Origin: an uncultured Clostridia bacterium
GTDB taxonomy: Bacteria > Bacillota > Clostridia > TANB77 > CAG-508
Assembly: GCA_944392545.1 (NCBI GenBank)
Contig: CALXWW010000001.1
Coordinates: 153,210 to 217,209, forward strand
Length of the DNA: 64,000 bases
Direction of reading: 5' to 3'
A program made the translations under genes and the position numbers. Under the pieces are notes generated by a model that was not told where the DNA came from, ran no database searches, and worked only from the letters and a program-made list of their open reading frames with translations. Numbering within the stretch: the first letter of the stretch is position 1; every line of letters begins with the position of its first letter. Below, in pieces: positions 20,749-59,311 of the stretch.

Positions 20749-23700
20749 ATGAATAATTTATTACATGTAGGATTAGATGTAGGTTCTACAACAGTAAAAA
20801 TAGTTGTTATGGACGACAATTTAAATATAATATATAGAGATTATCAAAGGCACTTTTCAGATACGAAAAATACCGTATGTAGTGTATTAGAGAGACTTTC
20901 TGAAAAATATCCAGAATCAGAATTTACAATAGCACTGACAGGTTCAGGCGCTATGTCTGCTGCCAAATTTTTGGACTTACCTTTTATTCAGGAAGTAGTA
21001 TCTTGTAAGAGAGCTGTAGAAAAATATATACCAAAAACAGACGTAGTTATAGAGCTTGGCGGAGAAGACGCTAAAATAATATATTTTGATAAATCAATAG
21101 AACAACGTATGAATGGTTCATGTGCAGGTGGTACTGGTGCATTTATCGATCAAATGGCATCACTCCTAAATACAGATCCAACAGGATTAAATGAACTAGC
21201 AAAAAATTATCAAACTATATACCCTATTGCATCTCGTTGCGGAGTTTTCGCTAAAACAGATATTCAACCACTCTTAAATGAAGGTGCTGCTAAAGAAGAT
21301 ATTGCAGTATCTATCTTTCAAGCAGTCGTAAACCAAACAATTTCAGGTTTAGCTTGTGGTAGACCAATTAGAGGAAATGTTGCGTTTTTAGGAGGTCCTC
21401 TTAACTATTTATCAGAATTAAGAAAAAGATTTATAGAAACTTTAAACTTAACTCCAGAACAAATAATTGTTCCAGAAGAAGCACATTTGTTAGTTGCTAT
21501 GGGTGCTGCTTTAGACTCTGTAGAAGAAGCAAAACCAATTACAGTAGAAAAACTAAAAAGTAAGATAGAAGTTTTAAGAGTATCTCATGATGATACATCT
21601 AACCCTCTTTCTCCTTTATTTTCAATAGATGCAGATTATGAAGAATTTAAACAGAGACATGAAAAAGATAAAGTAGAACGAGCAGATTTAAAAACATTTG
21701 AAGGAGACTGCTTTGTTGGTATCGATGCAGGTTCTACAACAACAAAACTAACTTTAATTGATAGTGATGGAAAACTTTTGTACTCACTTTATGGAAGCAA
21801 CGAAGGAAATCCTCTTCAAAGTGTTGTAAAGATGTTAAAACAATTATATGCAGAACTACCAGAAAAAGCTGTAATTAGATATAGTGGTGTTACAGGATAT
21901 GGTGAAAAACTAATTCAAACTGCATTGAATGTAGATTTAAATGAAATAGAAACAATTGCCCATTATACTGCTGCCAAAAAGTTCATGCCAAATGTTACTA
22001 GCATTGTTGACATCGGCGGTCAAGATATGAAATATATAAAAATGAAAAATGGTGCAATAGATAATATTATGCTTAATGAAGCTTGTTCTTCTGGTTGTGG
22101 CTCTTTTATAGAAACTTTTGCTAAAAGCTTAAATTTATCAATAGAAGAATTCGTAAAAGCAGCTTTAGAAGCAAGAAGACCCGTTGATTTAGGTTCTAGA
22201 TGTACTGTATTTATGAATTCAAAAATCAAACAAGCTCAAAAAGAAGGATATTCTGTTGGAGATATTTCTGCAGGGCTTTCATATTCGGTAATAAAAAATG
22301 CTATTCAAAAAGTTATGAAAGTTAGGGACGTTAAGAAACTAGGTGCACATATTGTTGTACAAGGTGGAACTTTTTATAATGATGCTGTATTAAGAGCCTT
22401 TGAGTTGATTGTCGGAAGAAATGTTATAAGACCTGATATTGCAGGTTTAATGGGATCTTATGGTATGGCATTACTTGCCAAAGAGCAATATGAAGCAAAT
22501 TTAGATATGGAATATAAATCAACAATTACTAAACTTGAAGATTTAGATAGCTTAAAAATAGATATTTCTCATATTCGTTGTAATGGTTGTGAAAATCATT
22601 GTTTACTTACTGTCAATAAGTTCGGTAATGGCACTAAATATATTTCTGGAAATCGTTGTGAAAAGGGTGCTGGAATTGTTGGAGAAAGAACAGAACTTCC
22701 TAATTTAGTAAAATATAAGTATGAAAGAATATTTGGATATACTCCATTAGAAGAAAAAGATGCACCAAGAGGAACAATTGGAATACCAAGAGTTTTAAAT
22801 ATGTATGAGGATTATCCTTTCTGGTTTACTTTCTTAACCAATTTAGGATTTAGAGTAATACTATCTGAAAAGAGTAACAGGAAAACATATGAAAAAGGTA
22901 TGGAGTCAATGCCATCAGAATCAGTATGTTTCCCAGCTAAACTATCTCATGGACACATAATCGGATTAATTAATCAAGGTATTAAAACAATCTTTTATCC
23001 TTGTATGCCATATTCTAGAAAAGAATATGAAAAAGCAGACAACCACTATAACTGTCCTATCGTTATTTCATATTCAGAAGTATTAAAAAATAATGTGGAA
23101 GAAATAAAGGAAAAGAATATAAAATTCTTAAATCCATTCTTACCATTCGATAGTAAAAATCTAGCCAAAACAATATTAGAATTACCAGAGTTTAAAGAAT
23201 ATAACTTTACTAAAAAAGAATTATTACAGGCTGCTGAAAAAGCTGAAAAAGAATATAAAAAATGTAAATCTGACATTCAGAAAAAAGGCCAAGAAACAGT
23301 AGAATACATAGAAAAAAATAATTTAAGAGGAATTGTACTGGCTGGTCGTCCATACCATGTAGACCCAGAGGTAAACCATGGTATCGATACATTAATTACA
23401 AGCTTAGGTCTTTGCGTTCTTACCGAAGATAGTATTTCAAATCAAACAGAAGTAAAAAGACCAATCAGAGTTGTTGACCAATGGGTATTCCATGCAAGAC
23501 TTTATGCAGCAGCTGACTTTGTAGGAAAGCATGACAATTTAGAATTAGTACAATTAAATTCATTTGGCTGTGGTGTAGACGCAGTTACAACAGATCAAGT
23601 AGAAGAAATATTAACAAGTTATGGAAAAATGTACACATTAATAAAAATAGACGAAATAAATAATCTGGGTGCTGTAAGAATTCGTATTCGTTCTCTACTT

Positions 23701-25077
23701 GCTAGTATGAATAAGCGTTTATCAAATAAAGTAGAACTAAAAGGTGATGGAAATTACGAAGTAAATAAAAAAATATTTACAAAAGACATGAAGAACGATT
23801 ATACAATTCTTATTCCACAAATGGCACCAATTCACTTTGAATTACTAGAAGCAGCTGTTCGACAATCTGGATATAAAGTAGAATTATTACGTAGTTGTAC
23901 AGATCATACAGTAGAAACAGGTCTAAAATATGTAAATAATGATGCTTGCTACCCATCAATATTAGTTACAGGACAAATGATAGAAGCATTACAATCAGGA
24001 AAATATGACTTAAATAAAACCGCTTTGATTATGTCTCAAACAGGTGGTGGTTGTAGAGCAACCAATTATATAGGATTTATTCGTAAAGCATTAAAAGATG
24101 CAGGCTTTGAAAACATTCCAGTAATCTCATTTAATGTTGTTGGAATGGAAAAAATGCCAGGATTTAAAATAACTTTACCTTTAATAGAAAGACTATTAAA
24201 AATGGTGGTATATGCAGATTTATTACAAAAAATGCTTACGAAAAATAGAGCTTACGAAATAAACAAAGGTGAAACACAAAAACTATTTGATACTTGGATG
24301 GAAAAATGTAAAAAATTACTTGAAAAGTCAACAATGAAAGAATTTAAACAAAGCATTTATGATATGGTAAATGACTTTGAGAAGATTGAACTTAATACCT
24401 CTGTAGAGAAACCTAAAGTAGGCATTGTCGGTGAAGTATTAATCAAATATCATCCATTTGGAAATAACTTTATTGCAAATAAATTGGAAGAAGAAGGTGC
24501 TGAAGTAGTTTTACCAGATTTTATGGGATTTATTAAATTTATTGCAACACATAAAATAACTTTTAATCAATTAATAAAAACTGATAAAATGAAGGCTAAA
24601 TTATTTAAAACAGCAATAAAACTAATAGATATATTAGAAAAAGATTCTAAAATAGCTTTAGCAAACTCTAAAAAAGGATATTTGCCTCCAGCAAATATTT
24701 GGGAATTAGAAGATAAAGTAAAAGATGTTTTATCAATAGGAAATCAAACAGGTGAAGGATGGTTTCTAACTGCAGAGATGATAGAATACATAGAAAATGG
24801 TATACCAAATATAGCTTGTGTACAACCATTTGCCTGCTTGCCAAACCATGTTGTTGGAAAAGGTGTAATTAAAACTATTAGAAGTAAATTTCCTGAAGCA
24901 AATATATCTGCAATAGATTATGATCCAGGTGCAAGTGAAGCAAATCAAACAAATAGAATTAAACTGTTAATGACAGTTGCAAAAGATAATTTAAAGAAAC
25001 AGCAAAAAGAAAAAAAAGTAATAGAAAAAGAAAATACAAATAATTTAGAAAAAAATCCTGAAAAAATACTTAAATAA
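20749..25077 (+). CDS. Fused acyl-CoA dehydratase activase (BadF/BadG/BcrA/BcrD ATPase x2) + HgdB-like dehydratase subunit domains, 1442 aa
   Basis: Two acetate/sugar-kinase-fold ATPase modules (LHVGLDVGSTTVKIVV... and FVGIDAGSTTTKLTLI...), then Cys-rich dehydratase-component-like regions. Confidence 0.8.
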   Translation: MNNLLHVGLDVGSTTVKIVVMDDNLNIIYRDYQRHFSDTKNTVCSVLERLSEKYPESEFTIALTGSGAMSAAKFLDLPFIQEVVSCKRAVEKYIPKTDVVIELGGEDAKIIYFDKSIEQRMNGSCAGGTGAFIDQMASLLNTDPTGLNELAKNYQTIYPIASRCGVFAKTDIQPLLNEGAAKEDIAVSIFQAVVNQTISGLACGRPIRGNVAFLGGPLNYLSELRKRFIETLNLTPEQIIVPEEAHLLVAMGAALDSVEEAKPITVEKLKSKIEVLRVSHDDTSNPLSPLFSIDADYEEFKQRHEKDKVERADLKTFEGDCFVGIDAGSTTTKLTLIDSDGKLLYSLYGSNEGNPLQSVVKMLKQLYAELPEKAVIRYSGVTGYGEKLIQTALNVDLNEIETIAHYTAAKKFMPNVTSIVDIGGQDMKYIKMKNGAIDNIMLNEACSSGCGSFIETFAKSLNLSIEEFVKAALEARRPVDLGSRCTVFMNSKIKQAQKEGYSVGDISAGLSYSVIKNAIQKVMKVRDVKKLGAHIVVQGGTFYNDAVLRAFELIVGRNVIRPDIAGLMGSYGMALLAKEQYEANLDMEYKSTITKLEDLDSLKIDISHIRCNGCENHCLLTVNKFGNGTKYISGNRCEKGAGIVGERTELPNLVKYKYERIFGYTPLEEKDAPRGTIGIPRVLNMYEDYPFWFTFLTNLGFRVILSEKSNRKTYEKGMESMPSESVCFPAKLSHGHIIGLINQGIKTIFYPCMPYSRKEYEKADNHYNCPIVISYSEVLKNNVEEIKEKNIKFLNPFLPFDSKNLAKTILELPEFKEYNFTKKELLQAAEKAEKEYKKCKSDIQKKGQETVEYIEKNNLRGIVLAGRPYHVDPEVNHGIDTLITSLGLCVLTEDSISNQTEVKRPIRVVDQWVFHARLYAAADFVGKHDNLELVQLNSFGCGVDAVTTDQVEEILTSYGKMYTLIKIDEINNLGAVRIRIRSLLASMNKRLSNKVELKGDGNYEVNKKIFTKDMKNDYTILIPQMAPIHFELLEAAVRQSGYKVELLRSCTDHTVETGLKYVNNDACYPSILVTGQMIEALQSGKYDLNKTALIMSQTGGGCRATNYIGFIRKALKDAGFENIPVISFNVVGMEKMPGFKITLPLIERLLKMVVYADLLQKMLTKNRAYEINKGETQKLFDTWMEKCKKLLEKSTMKEFKQSIYDMVNDFEKIELNTSVEKPKVGIVGEVLIKYHPFGNNFIANKLEEEGAEVVLPDFMGFIKFIATHKITFNQLIKTDKMKAKLFKTAIKLIDILEKDSKIALANSKKGYLPPANIWELEDKVKDVLSIGNQTGEGWFLTAEMIEYIENGIPNIACVQPFACLPNHVVGKGVIKTIRSKFPEANISAIDYDPGASEANQTNRIKLLMTVAKDNLKKQQKEKKVIEKENTNNLEKNPEKILK

Positions 25078-30143: not shown

Positions 30144-30644
30144 TTATCTTTTAGTATTTATTGCTTTATTAACTGCCTCTTTTTCTTCTTCCGATAATAT
30201 GTATTTTGACTGTCCATTTTCTATAGGTTTTGCATATATGTTAGAATTGTCCCTAGCATATATTCCATTTAATACTACACCATTATTATAATCATCTAAA
30301 ATAGCTAATGTAAAACTTAAATCACTACCTACATCTTTAAAGGCATTATATCTTACAATTCCTATTTTTTGCGTGCATCTTTTTATATTTTCATCAATTA
30401 CTTTGCAATATGATATTATTTCTCCATTTTTTGCTTCTACTGTTTCTACTCTTTTAATATATTCTTTTAATAGTTCTTCTATATTATTACCATTTCCTAG
30501 TTTGCTCATAAATCTTGAATAACTTGTCCTTAACTTTTTTAAATTAATTACACTAGTAATATATAATATCAACAATATGATAACTATTATAAATAATACT
30601 AAAAGAAAAATATCTGATCTTAAAAAATTAAAAAATATATCCAC
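30144..30644 (-). CDS. DUF4446-like membrane-anchored protein, the usual neighbour of spo0J
   Basis: 166 aa, N-terminal TM. Positionally equivalent to the DUF4446 gene that follows parB in many Firmicutes. Confidence 0.55.
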   Translation of the reverse strand: MDIFFNFLRSDIFLLVLFIIVIILLILYITSVINLKKLRTSYSRFMSKLGNGNNIEELLKEYIKRVETVEAKNGEIISYCKVIDENIKRCTQKIGIVRYNAFKDVGSDLSFTLAILDDYNNGVVLNGIYARDNSNIYAKPIENGQSKYILSEEEKEAVNKAINTKR

Positions 30645-30670
30645 TATTTCTATCCTCTCTAATACTAAAA

Positions 30671-31525
30671 TTATTTTATAAGTCCTAAAATTCTCTCTAA
30701 ATCATCGTATGAAGAGTATTGAATAATTATTTTTCCAGATTTTTTATTGGCATTTAACTTTACTTTTGTCCCAAAGAAACCTTGGAAAGAATCTTCTATA
30801 TCTCTATATATTGCTTCAATTCTAGGATCTTTTTTATCTATTGTTTTTGAGTTCTTTATTTTTCTTTCTATATCCCTTACAGATTCCCCTCTTTCTATTA
30901 TATTTAATGCTGCCTTATACTGTCTTTCTGGATCTTCAATTACAACTAAATTCCTACAATGTCCTTCTGTAAGCTTTCCTTCTTGCGCAAGTTCAATTAC
31001 TCTTGGGTCTAAATTTAAAATTCTTATAGAGTTTGCTATATTACTTCTACTTATTCCTATAGAATCTGCAAGCTCTTTTTGAGTCATTCCATAATCATCA
31101 ATTAGTTCTTTTAGTCCTTTTGCTTTATCTATTGGATTTAAATCTACTCTCTGTAAATTCTCTATCAATGCTATTTCTTTATTTGATTTATCTGTTATAT
31201 CATCTTTTATAATACATGGCATTTCAGATAATCCTGCCTTTTTAGCTGCTCTCCAACGTCTCTCTCCTGCTACTATTTCATAATAATCGCTTTTTTTATT
31301 AACTATAATAGGTTGTAACACCCCATAAGTTTTTATGGAATTTGCAAGTTCTTCTAAAGCTTCTTCATCAAATTTTTTTCTAGGTTGTTCTCTATTAGGT
31401 TCAATCTCTATAACTTTTATTTTATGAATTTTTTCTGCAGAATTTTCTAAATTTTCTACATCATTTGATAATAAATTATCTGCAAATAGTGCATCTAAGC
31501 CTTTTCCTAATCCAGTTTTTTTCAT
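30671..31525 (-). CDS. spo0J: Chromosome partitioning protein ParB/Spo0J
   Basis: ParB box IVAGERRWRAAKKAGL and an HTH (MTQKELADSIGISRSNIANSIR). Confidence 0.9.
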   Translation of the reverse strand: MKKTGLGKGLDALFADNLLSNDVENLENSAEKIHKIKVIEIEPNREQPRKKFDEEALEELANSIKTYGVLQPIIVNKKSDYYEIVAGERRWRAAKKAGLSEMPCIIKDDITDKSNKEIALIENLQRVDLNPIDKAKGLKELIDDYGMTQKELADSIGISRSNIANSIRILNLDPRVIELAQEGKLTEGHCRNLVVIEDPERQYKAALNIIERGESVRDIERKIKNSKTIDKKDPRIEAIYRDIEDSFQGFFGTKVKLNANKKSGKIIIQYSSYDDLERILGLIK

Positions 31526-31552
31526 CTTTACCTCCTAAATATACTTTATTTT

Positions 31553-32344
31553 TTATAATGAATGTTTACCACGTGAATCTGTTTCGTTTTTCTTAAGAAA
31601 TTCTTTTACAAATTTTTCATAACTCTTTGCCCCTTTTGATCTTGGATCATATATACTAATTGGCATTCCATAGCTTGGTGCTTCACTTAACTTAACATTT
31701 CTTGGAATAACGTTTTTATAAACTTTATCATTAAAATATTTTTTTACTTCTTTAACTACTTGATTAGATAAATTAGTTCTTATGTCATACATAGTAAGAA
31801 GAGCACCTTCTATTTCTATATTCTTATTAAGATGCTTCTTTACTAAATTTATTGTATTAAGTAATTGTCCTAATCCTTCTAATGCATAATATTCGCATTG
31901 TACTGGTATTAAAACACTATCTGAAGCAGTAAAAGCATTTAATGTAATTAATCCTAATGATGGAGGACAATCTATTATAATAAAATCATAGTCTGCTTTA
32001 ATTTTATCTAATTTTTCTTTTAATCTTTGCTCTCTTGACATTACAGAAACTAGTTCAACTTCAGCCCCTGCAAGGTTTATATTAGAAGGACATATATTTA
32101 AGTTTTTAATATTTGTCTTTTTGACAACTTCGTCAACTTCTATTTCGTTTATTAGAATATCGTAAACAGATACTTCTATATTATCTCTATCTATCCCAAC
32201 TCCACTAGAAGCATTTCCTTGAGGATCTGCGTCAATCATTAAAACTTTTTTGCCTTTCTTTGCAATAATAGTGCTTAAATTAATTGCGGTTGTAGTCTTT
32301 CCTACTCCTCCTTTTTGATTTGCAATCGAAATAATTTTCCCCAT
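31553..32344 (-). CDS. soj: Chromosome partitioning ATPase ParA/Soj
   Basis: Deviant Walker A IANQKGGVGKTTTAINL. The start is the ATG at 32344 after AGGAGG, shorter than the tracked ORF. Confidence 0.9.
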   Translation of the reverse strand: MGKIISIANQKGGVGKTTTAINLSTIIAKKGKKVLMIDADPQGNASSGVGIDRDNIEVSVYDILINEIEVDEVVKKTNIKNLNICPSNINLAGAEVELVSVMSREQRLKEKLDKIKADYDFIIIDCPPSLGLITLNAFTASDSVLIPVQCEYYALEGLGQLLNTINLVKKHLNKNIEIEGALLTMYDIRTNLSNQVVKEVKKYFNDKVYKNVIPRNVKLSEAPSYGMPISIYDPRSKGAKSYEKFVKEFLKKNETDSRGKHSL

Positions 32345-32483
32345 ATCATAGCCTCCTAAAAAAATTAACATATTAATAATATATAATAATTAATAATATG
32401 TCAATAAATTTCGTATAAATATTTCATATTTTTTTATAAAAAAATAAGGAAATCTTTTATTCGAATTTCCTTACTTATTATTT

Positions 32484-43822: not shown

Positions 43823-45772
<1,950 letters not shown>

Positions 45773-45786
45773 CAATTTGTAAAAAT

Positions 45787-45840
45787 AAATAGGTAAATAA
45801 TTAATAGATTAAATATTAATTATTTACCTATTTATATATT
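45787..45840 (+). terminator. gyrB terminator
   Basis: aaataggtaaataattaa...ttaattatttacctattt stem-loop. Confidence 0.6.
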
Positions 45841-45920
45841 TGGAGATAAAAAAGTTATTGATAATAAAACAATAACAAAACAATGTACAAAAAATGTCGA
45901 AAATTAGAGTACGGTTTTTC

Positions 45921-45956
45921 TTGAAAAGTTAATAAAAATATGGTATAAAAAAGAGA
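45921..45956 (+). promoter_or_regulatory. Candidate strong sigma-A promoter for the VirB4 operon
   Basis: TTGAAA, a 17-nt spacer, then tgGTATAAA, an extended -10. Confidence 0.45.
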
Positions 45957-46099
45957 ATGAAATTTCAATTAATTTTAATCATATTATTTTATATTATTTA
46001 GTAGTTTTTTTGGAATTAATATCAAAATAATTTTAATCTTTAAATATTCAAAAAATAATTAATTTAATTAAATAAAAATATTAATAGAAATATATTTAA

Positions 46100-46723
46100 T
46101 TATTTATTTCTATTAATTACTTATGGGAGGAGGAATATATAATAAAAATAAATAAAAAAAATAATATTAATTCTAGCCAGGAATGGTTAAAAATAGAAAG
46201 AATATTAGAAAACGGAATAATCAAAACAAAAGATAATAGATATTTAAAAATAATTAAAATAAATCCTATTAATTTTAACTTAAAATCAGATTTAGAAAAA
46301 GAAGCCATTTTAAATTCATATAAAATTTTTTTAAAGACATGTGACTTTAATTTTCAAATATTAATACAAAGCAATAAAGTAGATTTATCCAATCATTTTT
46401 CTCAAATAAATAATAATTTAATTCAGGAAGAAAAAAATATTCAAGAAATATCAAAAAAATATATAGAAAAAATAAAAGAATTAAATAATAATAAAAAATC
46501 ATCATCAAAAAATTATTATATAATTTTAGAATATATTAATAAAAATAACGAAATTATAGATATTGAAGCTAACTCAATAGAAAATTTAAATAATAAATAT
46601 TTTAAAATAAAAGATGGATTATCAAGATGCGGAAATCTTGCTATAGATATAAACGATAAAAGACAAATAAAGAATATATTATTTTCTTTTTTTAATACAA
46701 GAATTTATACTAATAATAAGTAA
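46100..46723 (+). CDS. VirB4/TcpF-family conjugation ATPase, N-terminal domain fragment (ORF lacks ATG/GTG/TTG)
   Basis: The open frame from 46100 translates ...SSQEWLKIERILENGIIKTKDNRYLKIIKINPINFNLKSDLEKEAILNSYKIFLKTCDFNFQILIQS...LSRCGNLAIDINDKRQIKNILFSFFN. This is the N-terminal pattern of Gram-positive VirB4 proteins (Tn916 Orf16 / TcpF-like). GGGAGGAGG sits at 46125-46133, but the only in-frame codons after it are ATA/ATT. The ORF contains no Met at all. Confidence 0.55.
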   Translation, partial: LFISINYLWEEEYIIKINKKNNINSSQEWLKIERILENGIIKTKDNRYLKIIKINPINFNLKSDLEKEAILNSYKIFLKTCDFNFQILIQSNKVDLSNHFSQINNNLIQEEKNIQEISKKYIEKIKELNNNKKSSSKNYYIILEYINKNNEIIDIEANSIENLNNKYFKIKDGLSRCGNLAIDINDKRQIKNILFSFFNTRIYTNNK

Positions 46724-46810: not shown

Positions 46811-48658
46811 ATGGAAAATATTTTTAAATTAAAAATAAAAAATAAAAAAAACAATAAAGAAAAATTAAAATTTTTAGAAGGTACATTTTTAGATGAAGAT
46901 TTTTTAGCGCCATCATATATTGATTTATCTAATCCAAAATATATTCAAATAGATAATAACTATTTTTCATCAATATTAATAGTAAATTATTTTAGAGAGC
47001 AAAATGAATTACTTTTAAAAACTTTAATAGATACAAATATGAATATAAATATCTCAATTTTTTATGAAAAACAAGATAATTATAAAGCGATAAGAGAACT
47101 TACATACCATATAGGAAATGTAGGTGCTGATTTAAAAAGTAGCAATCAGAATAGACAGGATATAGATATAGCAGCTTTTACATATAATGATGCAAAATAT
47201 ATTAGAAAAGAATTACAAATAAATAATGAAGATTTATATTATTTATATATTTATGTATGTATATATTCTCAAGATTTAAATGAAATAGAAAATATTTTAA
47301 ATAAAATAGAAGGGATAATAGAAAGTAAAGGATTGCACGCAAGAAGAGCATATTTTAGACAAGAACAAACATACAGGGCTTGTTTACCTTTGATGGAGAA
47401 TAATAAATTATTAAAGGAAGTGGCAAAACGAAACGTATTAACCAGTGGAATTGTATGTACATACCCATTTATATCCTCAGCTATTTTTGATGATACAGGA
47501 ATATTTATTGGAATAAATATATATAATAATTCTTTAATATTTGTTGATAGATATAACACTCAAAAATATAAAAATGCAAATATGTGCATTTTTGGAACTT
47601 CAGGTGCTGGAAAATCTTTTTATACAAAATTGTTAATTTTAAGATATAGAATACTAGGAATAGAACAATATATAATAGATCCAGAAAGAGAATATAATAA
47701 TTTATGTGAAAATTTAAATGGAACACTTTTAAAAATAGGACCTGGTTCAGACACATATATAAATGTATTTGATATAAGAAAAGAAAGTATAGAAGATAAT
47801 GAACAAGGATATTTAGCAAATAAAATTAGTAAGTTAATAGGTTTTTTTAATCTTATATTTGGAAAAATAAATGAAGAAGAAAAAGCAATTTTGGAAGAAA
47901 AATTAATAGAATTATATGCTACAAAATATATTACTTTCGATGATAAAAGTTTATACAAAGAAAATAATTTAGAAAAAGGAATAAATAATATTATTTTTAA
48001 AGAAAGTACAGATATGCCAATTTTACAAGACTTTTATAATATATTAGACAAAGATGAAAGAACAAAAATATTTAAAACAAAATTAATTCCTTTTATAAGA
48101 GGTTCTTTAAAATTTTTTAATAATTATACAAATGTAGAATTAAATAATAAATTAATTGTTGCAGACGTATATGAATTAGGAGAAGAAAATTTAAAATACG
48201 GAATGTATTTATTTACAGAACTATTTTGGGACAAAATAAAGAAGGACAGAAAAATAAAAAAAGCAATATATTTAGATGAAATATGGAGATTAATAGGTGT
48301 TACTTCTAACAAAGATGTTGCTAGTTTCATATATAAAATATTTAAAACTATTAGAAAATATGGAGGAAGTGGAGTTGCGGTTACTCAGGACATATCAGAT
48401 ATTTTTAGTTTAGAAGATGGAGTATATGGAAAAAGTATTTTAAATAATTCTAGCATAAAAACATTTTTTTCTTTAGAAGAAGAGAATATAAAAATATTAG
48501 AAAAATTTACTAATTTATCAGAAAAAGAAAAAATAGAAATAAAGTCTTTAAAAAGGGGAGAATGCCTAACATTTATAGGAGATGAACATATATTAAATAA
48601 AATATATGCAGCAGATTTTGAAAAAGAAATTATAGAAAATAAAATTAATTTTAATTAA
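46811..48658 (+). CDS. VirB4/CagE/TrbE-family type IV secretion ATPase (C-terminal 615 aa)
   Basis: Walker A FGTSGAGKSFYTKLL, the DPEREY motif (VirB4 D-P-x-G-E-Y), Walker B KAIYLDEIWRLIG and VAVTQDISDIF. Confidence 0.8.
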   Translation: MENIFKLKIKNKKNNKEKLKFLEGTFLDEDFLAPSYIDLSNPKYIQIDNNYFSSILIVNYFREQNELLLKTLIDTNMNINISIFYEKQDNYKAIRELTYHIGNVGADLKSSNQNRQDIDIAAFTYNDAKYIRKELQINNEDLYYLYIYVCIYSQDLNEIENILNKIEGIIESKGLHARRAYFRQEQTYRACLPLMENNKLLKEVAKRNVLTSGIVCTYPFISSAIFDDTGIFIGINIYNNSLIFVDRYNTQKYKNANMCIFGTSGAGKSFYTKLLILRYRILGIEQYIIDPEREYNNLCENLNGTLLKIGPGSDTYINVFDIRKESIEDNEQGYLANKISKLIGFFNLIFGKINEEEKAILEEKLIELYATKYITFDDKSLYKENNLEKGINNIIFKESTDMPILQDFYNILDKDERTKIFKTKLIPFIRGSLKFFNNYTNVELNNKLIVADVYELGEENLKYGMYLFTELFWDKIKKDRKIKKAIYLDEIWRLIGVTSNKDVASFIYKIFKTIRKYGGSGVAVTQDISDIFSLEDGVYGKSILNNSSIKTFFSLEEENIKILEKFTNLSEKEKIEIKSLKRGECLTFIGDEHILNKIYAADFEKEIIENKINFN

Positions 48659-48676: not shown

Positions 48677-50005
48677 ATGAAGAAAATAATAACTGCTATC
48701 GGAAATGAATTTATAAATAATGAATTAAAAAAAGAAAAAAATTTAAATGTTATTTTAAATGATATCCAATATAAAGAAGGAATAGTCGAGAGTTTGGAGA
48801 AAGAAAATGAAGTTGATTATATAATAATAAATAGTGTATTACAAGGTGAGACAAAAATAGAAGATTTAATAAAACAAATTTATATAATTAATAAATATAT
48901 TAAAATAATAATTATTATAGAAAATAATGAAAAAGAAATAGAAAAATATTTAAATTATAAAAATATATATAAAATTATTTATTTAGACAAAGACGATAAA
49001 GTTAATATGCAAAAAATAATAGAAATAATAAGTAATGATCATGAAAATAATAAAATAATTAATATAAAAAAAGAAGAAAAAAATAAAGAGAATAAAAAAG
49101 AAAGTAAAAAAATTAAAGGAGAAAGAAATAACACAAACATAGTATTAATAAAAAGAATAGCAAAAAATATAATAAATAATTATTTAATAAAACAATTGAG
49201 TTCAAAAAAAATTAAATTTAATTCAAAAAAATCATTGAAAAATAAAATAAAGAATAAAAGCATTTGCATAACAGGGCCACCAGGAGTTGGAAAAACAATT
49301 ATATCCATAAATTTAGCTAAAATAAATATTTATAAAAATGATAAGATTTTAATTATTAATTCAGACTTTTTTAATAATTCTATTAACACAATTTTAGGTC
49401 TTAGGAATATATCAAGAAATATAAATATAGAAAAAAAGTGTAAAGAAAATAATGAATATTTAAAAAATAATTTTGATAACATTTTTGAATGTTTTAATAT
49501 AATTAAAATTAATAAAAAAATAGATTTATTAATTTTAAAAAAAGAAAAAACAAAAGAAAATATTGAAAATATGTTTTTAAATAAAATAATTGAAAATATT
49601 AATTTTTTAAAAGATATTTATGAAATTATAATAATTGATACTAATTATAATGAAAAATCAAATAATTTAAAGAATATAACAGAGATATGCGATTTTTGTT
49701 TATTTATTTCTGATACTAATTTACTAGAAATAAACCAATCGATAAAATTACTAGATATATTTATAAATAAATTAAATATTAAAATTAATAATATAAAAAT
49801 AATGTTTAATAAATATAATTCTGAATCAATTAGTTTTAACTTATTAAAAAATATATTTAGCGAATTTGAGGTAATAGGAAAATTAAATTATAGAAAAATA
49901 TATAATAAATTGATTAATAAAAATAATAAATATAGTTTGTTAGATAAAAAACTAAAGAAAGAATATATAAATATTAATAATAAAATAAACAATATAAAAA
50001 AATAA
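48677..50005 (+). CDS. P-loop NTPase with N-terminal receiver-like (pseudo-receiver) domain, CpaE/TadZ- or ParA/FlhF-like
   Basis: N-terminal MKKIITAIGNEFINN...VDYIIINSVLQGE alternating beta/alpha pattern with no phospho-Asp context. The C-terminal ITGPPGVGKTIISINLAKI P-loop and IIIDTNYN. Extremely Asn/Lys/Ile-rich. Confidence 0.45.
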   Translation: MKKIITAIGNEFINNELKKEKNLNVILNDIQYKEGIVESLEKENEVDYIIINSVLQGETKIEDLIKQIYIINKYIKIIIIIENNEKEIEKYLNYKNIYKIIYLDKDDKVNMQKIIEIISNDHENNKIINIKKEEKNKENKKESKKIKGERNNTNIVLIKRIAKNIINNYLIKQLSSKKIKFNSKKSLKNKIKNKSICITGPPGVGKTIISINLAKINIYKNDKILIINSDFFNNSINTILGLRNISRNINIEKKCKENNEYLKNNFDNIFECFNIIKINKKIDLLILKKEKTKENIENMFLNKIIENINFLKDIYEIIIIDTNYNEKSNNLKNITEICDFCLFISDTNLLEINQSIKLLDIFINKLNIKINNIKIMFNKYNSESISFNLLKNIFSEFEVIGKLNYRKIYNKLINKNNKYSLLDKKLKKEYININNKINNIKK

Positions 50006-50773: not shown

Positions 50774-50892
50774 ATATAAAAATTATTAAACAAAGACTAA
50801 TAAAATAAATTTAAATATTAAAAAATTTTTAATATTAAAACATTAAAATTAGGAATAAGAAACAGTAAAAAAATATTAAAAAGTTTTTTTGG

Positions 50893-50930
50893 AAAAAAGG
50901 CTATTTTTTCAAAAAGAATTAGCCTTTTTT
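50893..50930 (+). terminator. Terminator preceding gyrA
   Basis: aaaaaaggcta ... tagcctttttt 11-bp stem. Confidence 0.5.
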
Positions 50931-50932
50931 AC

Positions 50933-50962
50933 TTGCAAATTTTGCTGTATTTATAGTATAAT
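50933..50962 (+). promoter_or_regulatory. gyrA promoter
   Basis: TTGCAA, an 18-nt spacer, then TATAAT. Confidence 0.5.
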
Positions 50963-51008
50963 ACAAGAGTAGTTATTGTAACATTTTTGAAAGGACGGAA
51001 TAAATAAA

Positions 51009-53447
51009 ATGGAAGAAAATGAAGGAAAAATTATCGAAAGAAATATTGAAACAGAAATGAAAACATCATATATTGATTATGCTATGAGTGTTATTGTTTC
51101 TCGTGCACTTCCAGATGTAAGAGATGGTTTAAAACCAGTACATAGAAGAATTCTATATGCTATGTATGAAGATGGAATAACTTCTGACAAACCTTACAGA
51201 AAAAGTGCCAATACAGTAGGTTCAGTTTTAGGAAGATATCATCCACATGGAGATTCATCAGTTTATGATGCAATGGTAAGAATGGCACAAGATTTCTCTA
51301 TGAGATATCCACTAATTGATGGACATGGAAACTTTGGTTCTGTTGATGGAGATGCGCCAGCAGCTATGAGGTATACAGAAGCAAGAATGTCAAAGATAGC
51401 AGAGACAATGCTTACAGACATAGAAAAGAATACAGTTGATTTTATGCCTAACTATGATGATAGATTACAAGAACCAACAGTTTTACCAGCTAAAATACCT
51501 ACACTTTTAATAAATGGTTCTTCAGGAATTGCCGTAGGTATGGCAACAAATATTCCACCACATAATTTGACAGAAGTTATAAATGGAATAGTTAAGATAA
51601 TTGATGATGATAATGTTACAGATGAACAATTAATGAGCATTATAAAAGGACCAGATTTCCCTACAGAAGGATTAATTTTGGGAAGAGATGGAATAAAAGA
51701 AGCATATACAACAGGTAAAGGTAAGATAACAATGAGAGCAGAGGCAGAAATAGAAGAAATGAGTGGAAACAAACAAAGAATCATTGTTAGATCTTTACCA
51801 TACCAAGTAAATAAAGCAAAATTAATCGAAAATATTGCAAACTTAGTAAAAGAAAAAAGGATAGAAGGAATTTCAGAAGTAAGAGATGAATCAGATAGAG
51901 AAGAAAAGGTAAGAATAGTCGTAGAACTAAAAAGAGACGTAAATGCTCAAGTAATATTAAATCAATTATTTAAATATACACAAATGCAAGATACTTTTGG
52001 AGTTATAATGTTAGCATTGGTTAATGGAGAACCAAAGATATTAACTTTGAGACAATGCTTAGAGTATTATATAGACCACAGAAAAGCAGTAATTCTTCGT
52101 AGGACACAATTTGATTTAGATAAAGCATTAGCAAGAGCTCATATATTAGAGGGATTAAAAATTGCATTAGATAATATAGATGAGGTAATTGAAATAATCA
52201 GAAATTCTTATGATGATGCAAAAGAAAGATTAATGGAAAGATTTGGACTTTCAGACATACAAGCACAAGCTATTCTAGATATGAGATTAAAAACTTTATC
52301 AGGATTACAACGTGAAAAAATAGAAGAAGAATATGCAGAATTAATGAAATTAATTGAGCATTTAAGAGCAATACTTGCAAGTGATAAGCTTGTATATGAC
52401 ATTATAAAAGAAGAACTATTAGAAATAAAAGATAAATACGGAGACGAGAGAAAGACAAAAATAGTTGCAGCTGAAGGAGAGTTCGACGTAGAAGATTTAA
52501 TAAAAGAAGAACAATGTGTTGTTGCACTAACTCATTTTGGTTATGTAAAGAGAATGCCAATAGATACATATAAAAGCCAAAAAAGAGGAGGAAAAGGAAT
52601 AACGGGAATTGCTACTAGAGAAGAGGACTTTGTAAAAGAAATATTTACATGTTCTACACATGATACAATACTATTCTTTAGCAACAAAGGAAAAGTATAT
52701 AGATTAAGAGGATATGAAATACCAGAAGCAGGAAGAACTGCTAAAGGTACTGCAATAGTAAATCTTTTAATGCTAGATGGAGGAGAAAAGATATCTGCAG
52801 TTATACCTATTGCAACTTTTGCAGAAGGCAAATATCTATTAATGGCTACAAAAAATGGAATAATTAAAAAGACATCGCTTAATGAATACATGTCTGTAAG
52901 AAAAAGTGGATTAATAGGAATAACTTTAAAAGATGAGGATGAACTTATAGATGTAAGACTTACTGATGGTGAAGACAATGTAGTACTTGTAACACATAAA
53001 GGAATGTGTATAACATTTGATGAAAAAGACGTAAGACCTATGGGAAGAGTATCACAAGGAGTTATTGGTATTAGATTAGATGACGAAGATTATGTTATAG
53101 GGATGGAATCAATAATTCAGGGAAGTAAGGCAACTCTTTTGGCAATAACAGAGAACGGATTCGGAAAAAGAACAGAGCTTGATGAATATAGAGTTCAAAC
53201 AAGAGGAGGAAAAGGTGTAATAACATATAAAGTAACACCTAAAACAGGAAATTTAGTTGGAATAAGAATTACTACAGATGACGAAGACGTAATGTTGATT
53301 ACTGATACAGGAACAATAATTAGACTTAAAGTTTCAGATATAAGTGTATTGGGACGTTCTACTCAAGGTGTAACTTTAATGAGAACTAATGAAGGAAAAG
53401 TAGTTAGTATAGAAACAATTCCTATGGAAGAAAAGGAAGAAGAATAG
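51009..53447 (+). CDS. gyrA: DNA gyrase subunit A
   Basis: Active-site region [10 protein letters not shown] (catalytic Tyr), QRDR-like region [20 protein letters not shown], and C-terminal beta-pinwheel repeats. Confidence 0.95.
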
Positions 53448-53450
53448 GAA

Positions 53451-53702
53451 GTGAAAATATTGGACGAAAACTTACATTATTTAAACGTTTTAATTGAATT
53501 AACATTGTATAAAAAAATAAAAATTTTATCAGAAGGAACTGAAATAAAAGATATAAATGCAAAAAGAAGAGAAATGATAGAAGAGTTTTGGAATGAATTA
53601 CCAGCAACATATAGAGTTGAAAATTATAAGCAAATAACATTAGATAAATTAAATAAAATGTTAGAAGCAGATAAAAAGAGAGATGAAGAACAAGAAAGAT
53701 AG
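53451..53702 (+). CDS. Small hypothetical protein
   Basis: 83 aa Lys/Glu-rich ORF, 3 nt after gyrA. Confidence 0.35.
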   Translation: MKILDENLHYLNVLIELTLYKKIKILSEGTEIKDINAKRREMIEEFWNELPATYRVENYKQITLDKLNKMLEADKKRDEEQER

Positions 53703-55881: not shown

Positions 55882-56166
55882 TTAATATTTTTTATATAAA
55901 TATATCTTAGGAGAAAAAATATATTTGTATAAATATTTAATAATATATAACATTTTTTCATGATTAAAACCTATAATACTAAATAAGAAAAAAGGGAAAA
56001 AGAAAACTATAAAAAAACTTATTTTTAAAGTAATATTAGGGATAAGAAAATAAGATATAAAAAACACAAATGATCCCCATAATATATTTAAAATAACAGT
56101 AGTATAATCAATAAAACCTAATAATTTACTATCAAAATTATAATTTTGTGGAAAAATAAATTTCAT
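55882..56166 (-). CDS. Small 2-TM membrane protein (possible PrgI/TcpE-like T4SS component)
   Basis: 94 aa, two hydrophobic helices, abuts the VirB6-like gene. Confidence 0.3.
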   Translation of the reverse strand: MKFIFPQNYNFDSKLLGFIDYTTVILNILWGSFVFFISYFLIPNITLKISFFIVFFFPFFLFSIIGFNHEKMLYIIKYLYKYIFSPKIYLYKKY

Positions 56167-56168
56167 AA

Positions 56169-57065
56169 TTATTTAATCTGTCCTTTCATTAATTTAAAAT
56201 TTTGTGAAACATCTGTGGAAATTCCACCTATAAAATGTTGAGTATATGAATTAGCTCTTAGCAGAGCATATAATGAACCAATGCATAATAATTTAGAAAG
56301 AATATCAGAAGAGGAGAAATCTAAAGAAGAAACTATTAAAAGAATAATCGAAATAAATGGTTGAATAAAAAGAAGAGATAAAAAAATTTTAAGCCAAGAT
56401 TTAAAAAACCAAGAACTTGAAGCATTTATTAGTGAAAGAAAAGCAAAAGGCATTAATAATATTAGAACTTTTATCATTATATATCTTAAGGAATAGGTAA
56501 ATAATAAGCTTACAAAACTAAAAGATATAATACTCCTTAAAATTCCATCAAAAGAGAATACGTTAATATTAGTAGAATCAATTGTGATAATTGAATTTAA
56601 ATTTTCTATTAATGCAGAAAAAGAAATTTCTGTATTTAAAATAGAAGAGCCAATTTGGCAAATTAACGAAGAAATTAAATCAGTAAAATATATAAAAAAT
56701 TCACATATAAAATAAGAACAATTAATAAACATTCCAAATATTAATAATTTGAAAATAAATTGATATGGTTTCTCAATAGAAATACCTGTAAAGTGTGAAT
56801 AAATTAATTTAAAACAGTAGTATAAACAAGTAGCAACAAGTAGAGAATTTGCAACTATTAGTAAACTATTATTTGAACCATGTCCAAATATTTTAGAAAA
56901 TAAAGAATCACTTAAAATATCTGTGCCTATAAAAGTTAATTCATCTAGAGTATTATAGACACTATTATCAATAGAAGAGAAAAGTGAATTTAATAGACTA
57001 TTTATAGTATCTATAATAACTTGTGAAATGTTAGTAAGCTCTGCTTCTGAAATATTTCCTTCCAA
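56169..57065 (-). CDS. Polytopic membrane protein, VirB6/TrbL-like candidate
   Basis: 298 aa with about 6 predicted TM helices separated by short loops. Size and topology match minimal VirB6. The assignment is positional and topological, not motif-based. Confidence 0.4.
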   Translation of the reverse strand: MEGNISEAELTNISQVIIDTINSLLNSLFSSIDNSVYNTLDELTFIGTDILSDSLFSKIFGHGSNNSLLIVANSLLVATCLYYCFKLIYSHFTGISIEKPYQFIFKLLIFGMFINCSYFICEFFIYFTDLISSLICQIGSSILNTEISFSALIENLNSIITIDSTNINVFSFDGILRSIISFSFVSLLFTYSLRYIMIKVLILLMPFAFLSLINASSSWFFKSWLKIFLSLLFIQPFISIILLIVSSLDFSSSDILSKLLCIGSLYALLRANSYTQHFIGGISTDVSQNFKLMKGQIK

Positions 57066-57080
57066 AGTACACCTCCACGA

Positions 57081-57428
57081 CTATTCTACTAAAGATTTAA
57101 TTGCAGACAAAATTAAATTGATTGCAAGAATAAAAGCATAAGAAAATAAAGAACCTCTAATTAATTTCTTTGCAACTCTGATTCTTTCTTCATCACCAAA
57201 GCTAAATTTTTTCATAAAAACTCCAACGCCTACAGCAACTGCAGCAGCCGGAGTAGCTAAAGTAATAAGCCAACCTTTAATGCTTTCAAATGCATTAGTT
57301 AATTTATCTACTAATGCTGGTGGACTATCAAAAAGAGCAGATTTGCAAATATTATTGAACAGTGTTAAAAAAATGAATAATAGAAAAATAAAATAGAATA
57401 AAATAAATATGTTTTTAGATTTTTTCAT
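57081..57428 (-). CDS. VirB2/TrbC-like pilin-type protein
   Basis: Signal/TM N-terminus, then KGWLITLATPAAAVAVGVGVFM and a second hydrophobic helix. This resembles the hairpin architecture of TrbC/VirB2. Confidence 0.45.
   Translation of the reverse strand: MKKSKNIFILFYFIFLLFIFLTLFNNICKSALFDSPPALVDKLTNAFESIKGWLITLATPAAAVAVGVGVFMKKFSFGDEERIRVAKKLIRGSLFSYAFILAINLILSAIKSLVE

Positions 57429-57445: not shown

Positions 57446-59311
<1,866 letters not shown>

Follow-up and report, generated by a model that had tools for sequence, protein, structure and literature searches.

Genes at the replication origin

The 64-kb stretch of DNA analyzed in this study (the window, 64,000 nucleotides) is very AT-rich (25.4% GC), and because of this composition its long ORFs required checking. 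The gene of interest, hereafter the ParA-like gene, sits in the replication-origin cluster and not in a mobile element. Upstream lie rnpA, yidC, jag, mnmE, mnmG, rsmG, soj and spo0J, followed by dnaA (39508), dnaN, recF, a RemA-like gene and gyrB (43859-45772). The space between gyrB and gyrA (51009-53447) is occupied by TraC_N, VirB4, the ParA-like gene and u239, while dnaI-like and dnaD-like genes lie past gyrA on the opposite strand, followed by u94, u298, u115 and a VirD4-like gene. Canonical soj (AAA_31, 250 bits) and spo0J (ParB) genes (together 30671-32371) and a DUF4446 gene are found at 30144-32371 (- strand), upstream of rsmG-mnmG-mnmE-jag-yidC-rnpA; the T4SS insertions aside, this is otherwise a standard Firmicute origin. 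The genes of the T4SS-type block are as follows.

46139-46722, + strand: TraC_N, TrsD/TraD-like (VirB4 N-terminal domain encoded by a gene of its own)
46811-48658, + strand: VirB4-type ATPase, CD1110 family-like, with Walker A GTSGAGKS and Walker B-like IYLDE
48677-50005, + strand: ParA-like gene, pseudo-receiver plus MinD/ParA-fold ATPase, 442 aa
50054-50773, + strand: u239, predicted all-helical protein of no known family, co-conserved candidate partner of the ATPase
55882-56166, - strand: u94, small protein, weakly PrgI/VirB3-like (blastp E = 0.024 against the PrgI portion of the PrgI-VirB4 fusion in Vescimonas; syntenic)
56169-57065, - strand: u298, polytopic membrane protein, VirB6/TrbL-like candidate (E = 5.7e-8 to a Vescimonas T4SS-cluster membrane protein; weak TrbL_3 match)
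57081-57428, - strand: u115, T4SS pilin-like (VirB2-like) protein (PF18895 at 22.4 bits, below the 26.6 cutoff)
57446-59311, - strand: VirD4-type coupling protein (PF10412 at 29.5 bits, cutoff 20.5; SXT_TraD; N-terminal TM region; Walker A GTIGTGKT)

Several of these assignments are strengthened or qualified by further comparisons. The counterparts of TraC_N in relatives are called TraC-like by PF26593, and those of u115 give the same weak PF18895 match. The VirB4 of the window scores 283 bits against an equivalog cutoff of 325, and is thus related to that family but not an equivalog. Judging by their motifs, both VirB4 and VirD4 look catalytically intact, and the hydrophobic sequence of u94 suggests a membrane location. 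The block contains the gene set of a Gram-positive conjugative T4SS (VirB4, VirD4, VirB6-like and VirB3-like genes). Signs of carriage by a mobile element (relaxase, integrase, replication genes) were not found for the block, and its synteny at oriC is fixed in 80 species. Relaxase, integrase, VirB8-like and hydrolase genes were not found in the 64-kb window, nor were an oriT-like feature or a VirC2-like DNA-binding protein. A search of the block for promoters and terminators returned 62 sites compared to 58 expected and no terminators, a result that says little at 25% GC.

The TraC_N gene (46100-46722) has no ATG, GTG or TTG start in the window; both the window and several relatives (L014, L033, L025) have an ATA or ATT codon 6-8 nt past a strong GGAGG, and one further species (L012) has an ATG at the same position. 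Its dN/dS of 0.09-0.15 indicates that TraC_N is coding. It is therefore likely, from the nucleotide sequence, that this gene initiates at a non-canonical Ile codon, in which case standard gene callers would miss or mis-start it.

The spacers at either end of the gyrB-gyrA interval vary in length among species (loci L060, L049, L019 and L007). The gyrB-TraC_N spacer (45773-46138) measures 0.37 kb here and up to approximately 4.6 kb in L060, and the u239-gyrA spacer lies at 50774-51008; extra genes are sometimes present in these spacers, such as a ParE-toxin pair in L007 (10175-10691). Both spacers are insertion hot spots in an otherwise fixed block. Directly after gyrA, an 83-aa ORF (53451-53702, + strand) is conserved in the closest relatives only (80% identity in L014, approximately 40% in L038 and L040), and other species have predicted ORFs of 80-96 aa at this position. 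Elsewhere in the window, 20749-25077 (+ strand) encodes a protein of 1442 aa in which two BcrAD_BadFG ATPase domains are accompanied by DUF2229 (CoA-enzyme activase type); its N-terminus has a sub-threshold match resembling IS110 transposases.

A pseudo-receiver joined to a MinD/ParA-fold ATPase

The ORF of the ParA-like gene starts with ATG, carries ICITGPPGVGKTIISINLAKI and is divided as follows.

48677-49042, + strand: N-terminal CheY-fold pseudo-receiver, residues 1-122, acceptor Asp absent
49043-49252, + strand: Lys/Asn-rich disordered linker, residues 123-192, length variable, near-neutral
49253-50002, + strand: MinD/ParA-fold ATPase domain, residues 193-442
49274-49297, + strand: Walker A, G200-T207
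49625-49639, + strand: Walker B, I317-D321
Within the ATPase domain, + strand: other motifs, switch-I N228/D230 and F377-N-K-Y-N-S382

The initial annotation had described a 442-aa protein with a P-loop and a Lys-rich linker, and this ORF proved to be real: its homologues number more than 1100, purifying selection acts on it, and 21 of the 70 residues of its strongly basic linker are Lys. An exhaustive profile search at E<1e-30 returned 324 representatives of clusters at 50% identity. In Pfam, the window copy exceeded the cutoff of CbiA alone (27.4 versus 25.4 bits); among aligned relatives, CbiA and ParA matched 19 of 19 and AAA_31 matched 13 of 19. The ATPase domain has the MinD/ParA alpha/beta fold, with MinD and FleN nearest. 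In profile matches to the PDB, MinD (8e-7) was followed closely by CapB, Wzc and Etk (approximately 2e-6 to 2e-5). Foldseek, run on a moderately confident structure model (pLDDT 69.7, MSA of 19 sequences; linker pLDDT <50), gave 3FKQ, the TadZ of E. rectale, as the best match, with both domains aligned, which bears out the TadZ/CpaE-like architecture proposed in the initial annotation.

Motif conservation was counted over 251 relatives. The Walker A motif reads G200 (251/251), three variable residues, [VA], G205, K206 (250/251) and [ST]207 (249/251), and the signature Lys of the deviant Walker A (x-K-G-G-x-x-G-K-[ST]) is absent at position 201, where Pro (118), Thr (35), Asn (26), Ala (19), Ser (19) and Ile (11) account for 228 of the 251 relatives, with Lys not among these six. 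The catalytic Lys and Asp residues that had been singled out for comparison are well conserved; besides K206, the first switch-I Asp (position 228) is kept in 228 of the 251 relatives, D230 in 219 and the Walker B D321 in 244. The strand-end N378-K379 pair is retained in 246 of the 251. Tyr380, Tyr405, Tyr409 and Tyr430 are invariant. The window copy has Asn at position 228 (nt 49358-49360), a substitution shared with 14 other relatives, and from the motif this variant may be slower or hydrolysis-impaired.

The protein belongs to the ParA/MinD structural superfamily without having its hallmark deviant Walker A, and with its classical P-loop the domain should still bind nucleotide. The suggestion that the P-loop is classical rather than deviant was therefore sound. 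Neither the fold of the SRP54/FtsY/FlhF-type GTPases nor their G4 [NT]KxD motif is present. A crude hydrophobic-moment scan of the last 50 residues found no 11-residue stretch with muH>0.6, the sign of a MinD-type C-terminal amphipathic helix.

The CheY-like N-terminal domain had been thought to lack a phospho-acceptor, and the alignment agrees: over the 251 relatives, the column equivalent to D57 of CheY holds Asn, Ser or Lys (Asp in 5 of 251), and at the other receiver active-site positions neither an acidic pair nor a Thr or Lys is conserved. Nevertheless, no other region of the protein is as well conserved as the beta-to-alpha loop face, with T6 and A7 each present in 241 of 251 sequences, D29 in 245, Y32 in 243 and E34 in 230. 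The near-invariant D29-I-Q-Y-K-E-G35 loop, together with T6, A7 and G57, lies entirely on beta-to-alpha loops. Since the acceptor site is gone and the loop face is strongly kept, the domain is a pseudo-receiver whose surface is conserved. The window copy gave no match to the profile of the TadZ N-terminal domain (E<=1), and for 19 members this profile was not among the 25 families listed of 27 (E<=0.1); one of these members weakly matches Response_reg (E 0.0033).

The adjacent u239 has 2339 homologues and no Pfam or NCBIfam match. Only helices are predicted for it, along with repeats rich in Gly and, toward the C-terminus, a segment resembling a coiled coil; its AF2 model is unreliable (pLDDT 47). 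It gave no ParB or HTH match, and no ParB or centromere partner was found beside the ParA-like gene.

Conservation and inheritance of the block

A locus scan of GTDB r232, with one genome per species, returned 80 loci, all from MAGs of human, mouse, rabbit, chicken and ruminant guts. Most of these MAGs are labelled uncultured Clostridia, Clostridium sp. or similar, and a few are labelled Bacillota, Erysipelotrichaceae, Lachnospiraceae or Tenericutes. The pairing with VirB4 noted from the single sequence holds throughout, with VirB4 directly upstream of the ParA-like gene on the same strand in 80 of 80 loci; u239 is found downstream in 70 loci and gyrA in 62, gyrB lies upstream in 65, and most missing neighbors coincide with contig ends. 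From the VirB4 stop to the start of the ParA-like gene the median distance is -1 nt; overlapping frames were seen in 27 of 52 loci. Across the loci examined the neighbors are VirB4, TraC_N, u239, gyrA and gyrB, the most divergent members tested retain the VirB4 context, and none of the members examined was seen in any other. Neither MinC/MinE-like nor FlhF-type partners were found near the gene, and no Tad genes (CpaF/TadA, TadB/C, Flp) lie beside it.

Median identity to the window was highest for gyrB (85%), gyrA (84%) and dnaN (81%), followed by VirB4 (72%), DnaA (68%), RecF (67%), DnaD and VirD4 (both 64%), TraC_N (56%), u239 (51%) and the ParA-like gene (44%). Against four neighboring species, the dN/dS values were 0.01-0.19 for housekeeping genes, 0.05-0.11 for VirB4, 0.10-0.19 for u239, 0.13-0.28 for VirD4 and 0.30-0.49 for the ParA-like gene, which is the fastest-evolving gene of the block; within it, the N-terminal domain gave 0.23-0.58, the ATPase domain 0.26-0.43 and the linker 0.47-1.05. 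This fast evolution could mean a peripheral or an adaptive role. Co-divergence with gyrA was measured from all-against-all distance matrices, and the Mantel rho was 0.77 for both VirB4 and VirD4 (gyrB, 0.79; dnaN, 0.70), 0.55 for the ParA-like gene, similar to recF (0.54), and a noisy 0.17 for u239. No relatives of the ParA-like gene or of u239 were found among 72,556 plasmids of PLSDB or IMG/VR contigs, and a plasmid or phage origin of these two genes was therefore rejected.

Because of this synteny, selection and co-divergence with gyrA, and since its ParA-like gene and u239 have no plasmid or viral relatives, the T4SS-type block is, by all of these comparative measures, inherited vertically and maintained. 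Two irregularities were seen among the loci. In one species (L004/L005, 14924-15907, - strand) an rve-family integrase/transposase lies between dnaD and u94, and in the long-read contig L010 gyrB, VirB4 and other block genes are called as split ORFs, probably as a result of sequencing frameshifts rather than decay.

Potential roles of the ParA-like ATPase

We consider the chances about even that the ParA-like protein is a lineage-specific accessory ATPase, acting as ATP-dependent organizer or adaptor of a chromosomally fixed, vertically inherited Gram-positive T4SS. The apparatus would comprise a split VirB4, VirD4, and VirB3-, VirB6- and VirB2-like proteins. In this mechanism, the MinD/ParA-fold domain would bind ATP via its classical P-loop (K206, S/T207) and the Walker B Asp321, and the ATP-bound domain would dimerize or switch conformation, like other positioning ATPases of the MinD/ParA type. 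Turnover would probably be slow or partner-dependent, since the signature lysine that acts in trans is absent. The pseudo-receiver, which should not be phosphorylatable, may dock through the face formed by T6, A7, G9, D29-I-Q-Y-K-E-G35 and G57 onto a component of the machine (VirB4/TraC_N, VirD4 or u239) or onto a cellular landmark, with the flexible linker allowing the two modules to work at a distance. The net effect would be to determine the place or time at which the VirB4/VirD4 machine is assembled or activated, comparable to the part played by TadZ/CpaE in Tad pili, by FlhG/FleN in flagella and by BcsQ in cellulose synthase. However, it is important to note that the signature lysine employed in MinD/ParA sandwich-dimer catalysis is absent, that the window copy carries N228, that no amphipathic helix was found by the crude scan, that the gene evolves faster than the rest of the block and that the structure model is of moderate confidence, all of which count against an organizer.

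The main rival of the organizer is substrate delivery of the VirC1 type, in which the ParA-fold domain would bind DNA or nucleoprotein, perhaps with u239 as adaptor, and hand it to VirD4. A MinD/ParA fold beside T4SS ATPases, a conserved VirD4 in the block, the co-conserved candidate partner u239 downstream and the strongly basic linker are all consistent with delivery, and such a role has been proposed for Agrobacterium VirC1 (Atmakuri 2007, cited in PMC4234268) and for the ParA-like gene of Ted loci (PMC9905601). On the other hand, the lack of a relaxase, an oriT-like feature and a VirC2-like protein within the window, the missing signature lysine, and a pseudo-receiver architecture that is TadZ-like and not VirC1-like make this role unlikely.

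It is also conceivable that the protein is a MinD-like housekeeping regulator, positioning the division site, chromosome or envelope, and shares an operon with VirB4 only by coincidence, as its oriC-proximal housekeeping surroundings and its closeness in fold to MinD and FleN might suggest. However, coincidence is hard to reconcile with an invariant VirB4 pairing (80/80 loci) in which the frames often overlap, or with a family unseen in any other context among the members examined; together with the lack of a MinC/MinE-like neighbor and, by a crude test, of a membrane-targeting helix, this renders a housekeeping regulator quite improbable. A role as the chromosomal ParA was ruled out by the separate soj/spo0J pair near the origin.

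The initial annotation had also raised a partition ATPase of a decayed element. The ParA superfamily fold, T4SS genes derived from conjugation machinery, and the loss of relaxase and integrase from the window would all be expected of a partition ParA left by a decayed integrative conjugative element. This origin was largely refuted by the conservation of and selection on the block, which is intact in 80 species with dN/dS of 0.05-0.3 and co-diverges with gyrA; the protein has no ParB or centromere partner, no relatives on 72,556 plasmids or on viral contigs and none of the signature lysine of partition ParAs, and the chromosome has its own soj/spo0J, so that we regard a partition remnant as very improbable. 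What had been observed in the single sequence was upheld, and its interpretation was supported in part: a TadZ-like organizer is the favored reading, and partition for a decayed element is not.

It is scarcely credible that the protein is an autophosphorylating tyrosine kinase of the BY-kinase type controlling the machine by phosphorylation, since the Walker A' DxDxR, the C-terminal tyrosine cluster and the kinase-type fold are all absent, despite a Walker A without signature Lys as in CapB/Wzc ('S/G-x-P-G-x-G-K-S'), PDB profile E values of CapB, Wzc and Etk close to that of MinD, the four invariant Tyr residues and one subclade ending in 'GGNYYG'. The Tyr-rich tail of that subclade (P0023, P0027, P0032), '...IIGGNYYG[VT]RK...', recalls the tyrosine clusters of BY-kinases and is absent from the window copy.

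Beyond an organizer of the T4SS, we tentatively raise, as a doubtful possibility, that the block as a whole is a domesticated conjugation machine for DNA import or exchange between cells, a Gram-positive counterpart of archaeal Ced/Ted, in which the ParA-like protein would be the organizer that links this machine with DNA or with a site in the cell. It would have been owned vertically since the origin of an order-level clade of uncultured, genome-reduced gut Clostridia. Import or exchange is suggested by analogy with Ced/Ted, of which a ParA-like gene is also part.

Flagella, Tad pili, cellulose synthase and the T-DNA pathway of Agrobacterium are already known to have positioning ATPases of the MinD/ParA type, and to our knowledge no pseudo-receiver organizer of a Gram-positive VirB4/VirD4 system has been described. 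In this family, an architecture like that of TadZ is paired with a classical P-loop, which is unusual. More novelty lies in the complete locus than in the gene, and the setting is the more striking result: a conjugation-type T4SS is conserved approximately as strongly as DnaA or RecF and split around gyrA at oriC in at least 80 species. Such a locus would represent a conjugation apparatus captured by its host, which is rare in bacteria, and no description of a T4SS locus at oriC/gyrA was found in the literature searched. The TANB77 lineage has been linked to immunotherapy response, and the locus gives a concrete handle on the biology of this abundant uncultured gut lineage.

Comparison with known systems

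The closest likeness is to TadZ/CpaE, which shares the acceptor-less N-terminal receiver fold and the C-terminal MinD/ParA-fold domain and is likewise accessory to an envelope-spanning, ATPase-driven machine. TadZ has lost the canonical Lys of its Walker A (consensus K/RGGxGxS/T), and the E. rectale protein lacks both lysines. Compared to this consensus, the motif of the ParA-like family is a mirror image, since G-x-x-x-[VA]-G-K-[ST] keeps the canonical Lys and does without the signature Lys. The long disordered linker has no equivalent in TadZ, and the neighbors differ (CpaF/TadB/TadC/Flp for TadZ compared to VirB4/VirD4 here). The ParA-like protein is TadZ-like in architecture, yet it is not a TadZ, because it has the opposite Walker A, no TadZ N-domain profile match and no Tad genes near it. 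In addition, the Tad-pilus cluster of TANB77 is a separate locus with its own TadZ- and CpaE-like genes (PMC11680825).

Relative to MinD, FlhG (FleN) and BcsQ, the protein has neither the signature lysine nor a detectable C-terminal amphipathic helix, and it carries the pseudo-receiver as an extra domain. VirC1 is a single-domain ParA with a deviant Walker A that works with VirC2 and the relaxosome at the overdrive/border sequence, whereas the protein studied here combines a pseudo-receiver with a classical Walker A, and neither a relaxase nor a VirC2-like gene was found in the window. VirC1 of Agrobacterium is described in PMC4234268 as ParA/MinD-like with a role in early DNA transfer (Atmakuri 2007), and archaeal Ted loci, a DNA import system, contain a conserved VirC1/ParA-like gene in a domesticated chromosomal T4SS (PMC9905601); both resemble the present gene in being ParA/MinD-type ATPases attached to a T4SS.

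TsfV of the clostridial T7SSf is a TadZ-like atypical receiver and P-loop ATPase encoded in a non-Tad Gram-positive secretion cluster (PMC11217815). Compared by description, it resembles the ParA-like protein in fusing an atypical receiver to a P-loop ATPase in a non-Tad secretion locus; however, TsfV goes with an FtsK/EssC-type T7SS and the present protein with VirB4/VirD4, and TsfV is recognized by the InterPro TadZ-like_ARD entry while the present family is unrecognized by the corresponding Pfam model.

The nearest mobile relative is the CD1110/CD1115-type T4SS of Vescimonas pMM35_02, in which a single PrgI-VirB4 fusion corresponds to TraC_N plus VirB4 (32-34% identity; E 6e-22 and 7e-114, respectively). 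A separate gene for the TrsD-like N-terminal domain has precedent in TraD-TraE of pIP501 and TrsD-TrsE of pSK41. Nothing corresponding to the ParA-like gene or to u239 is present in the Vescimonas mobile T4SS, and on this comparison of gene content both are additions absent from the nearest mobile T4SS. While systems of the CD1110/CD1115 type are mobile, the T4SS genes of the window form two groups around gyrA-dnaI-dnaD at oriC and are passed on vertically.
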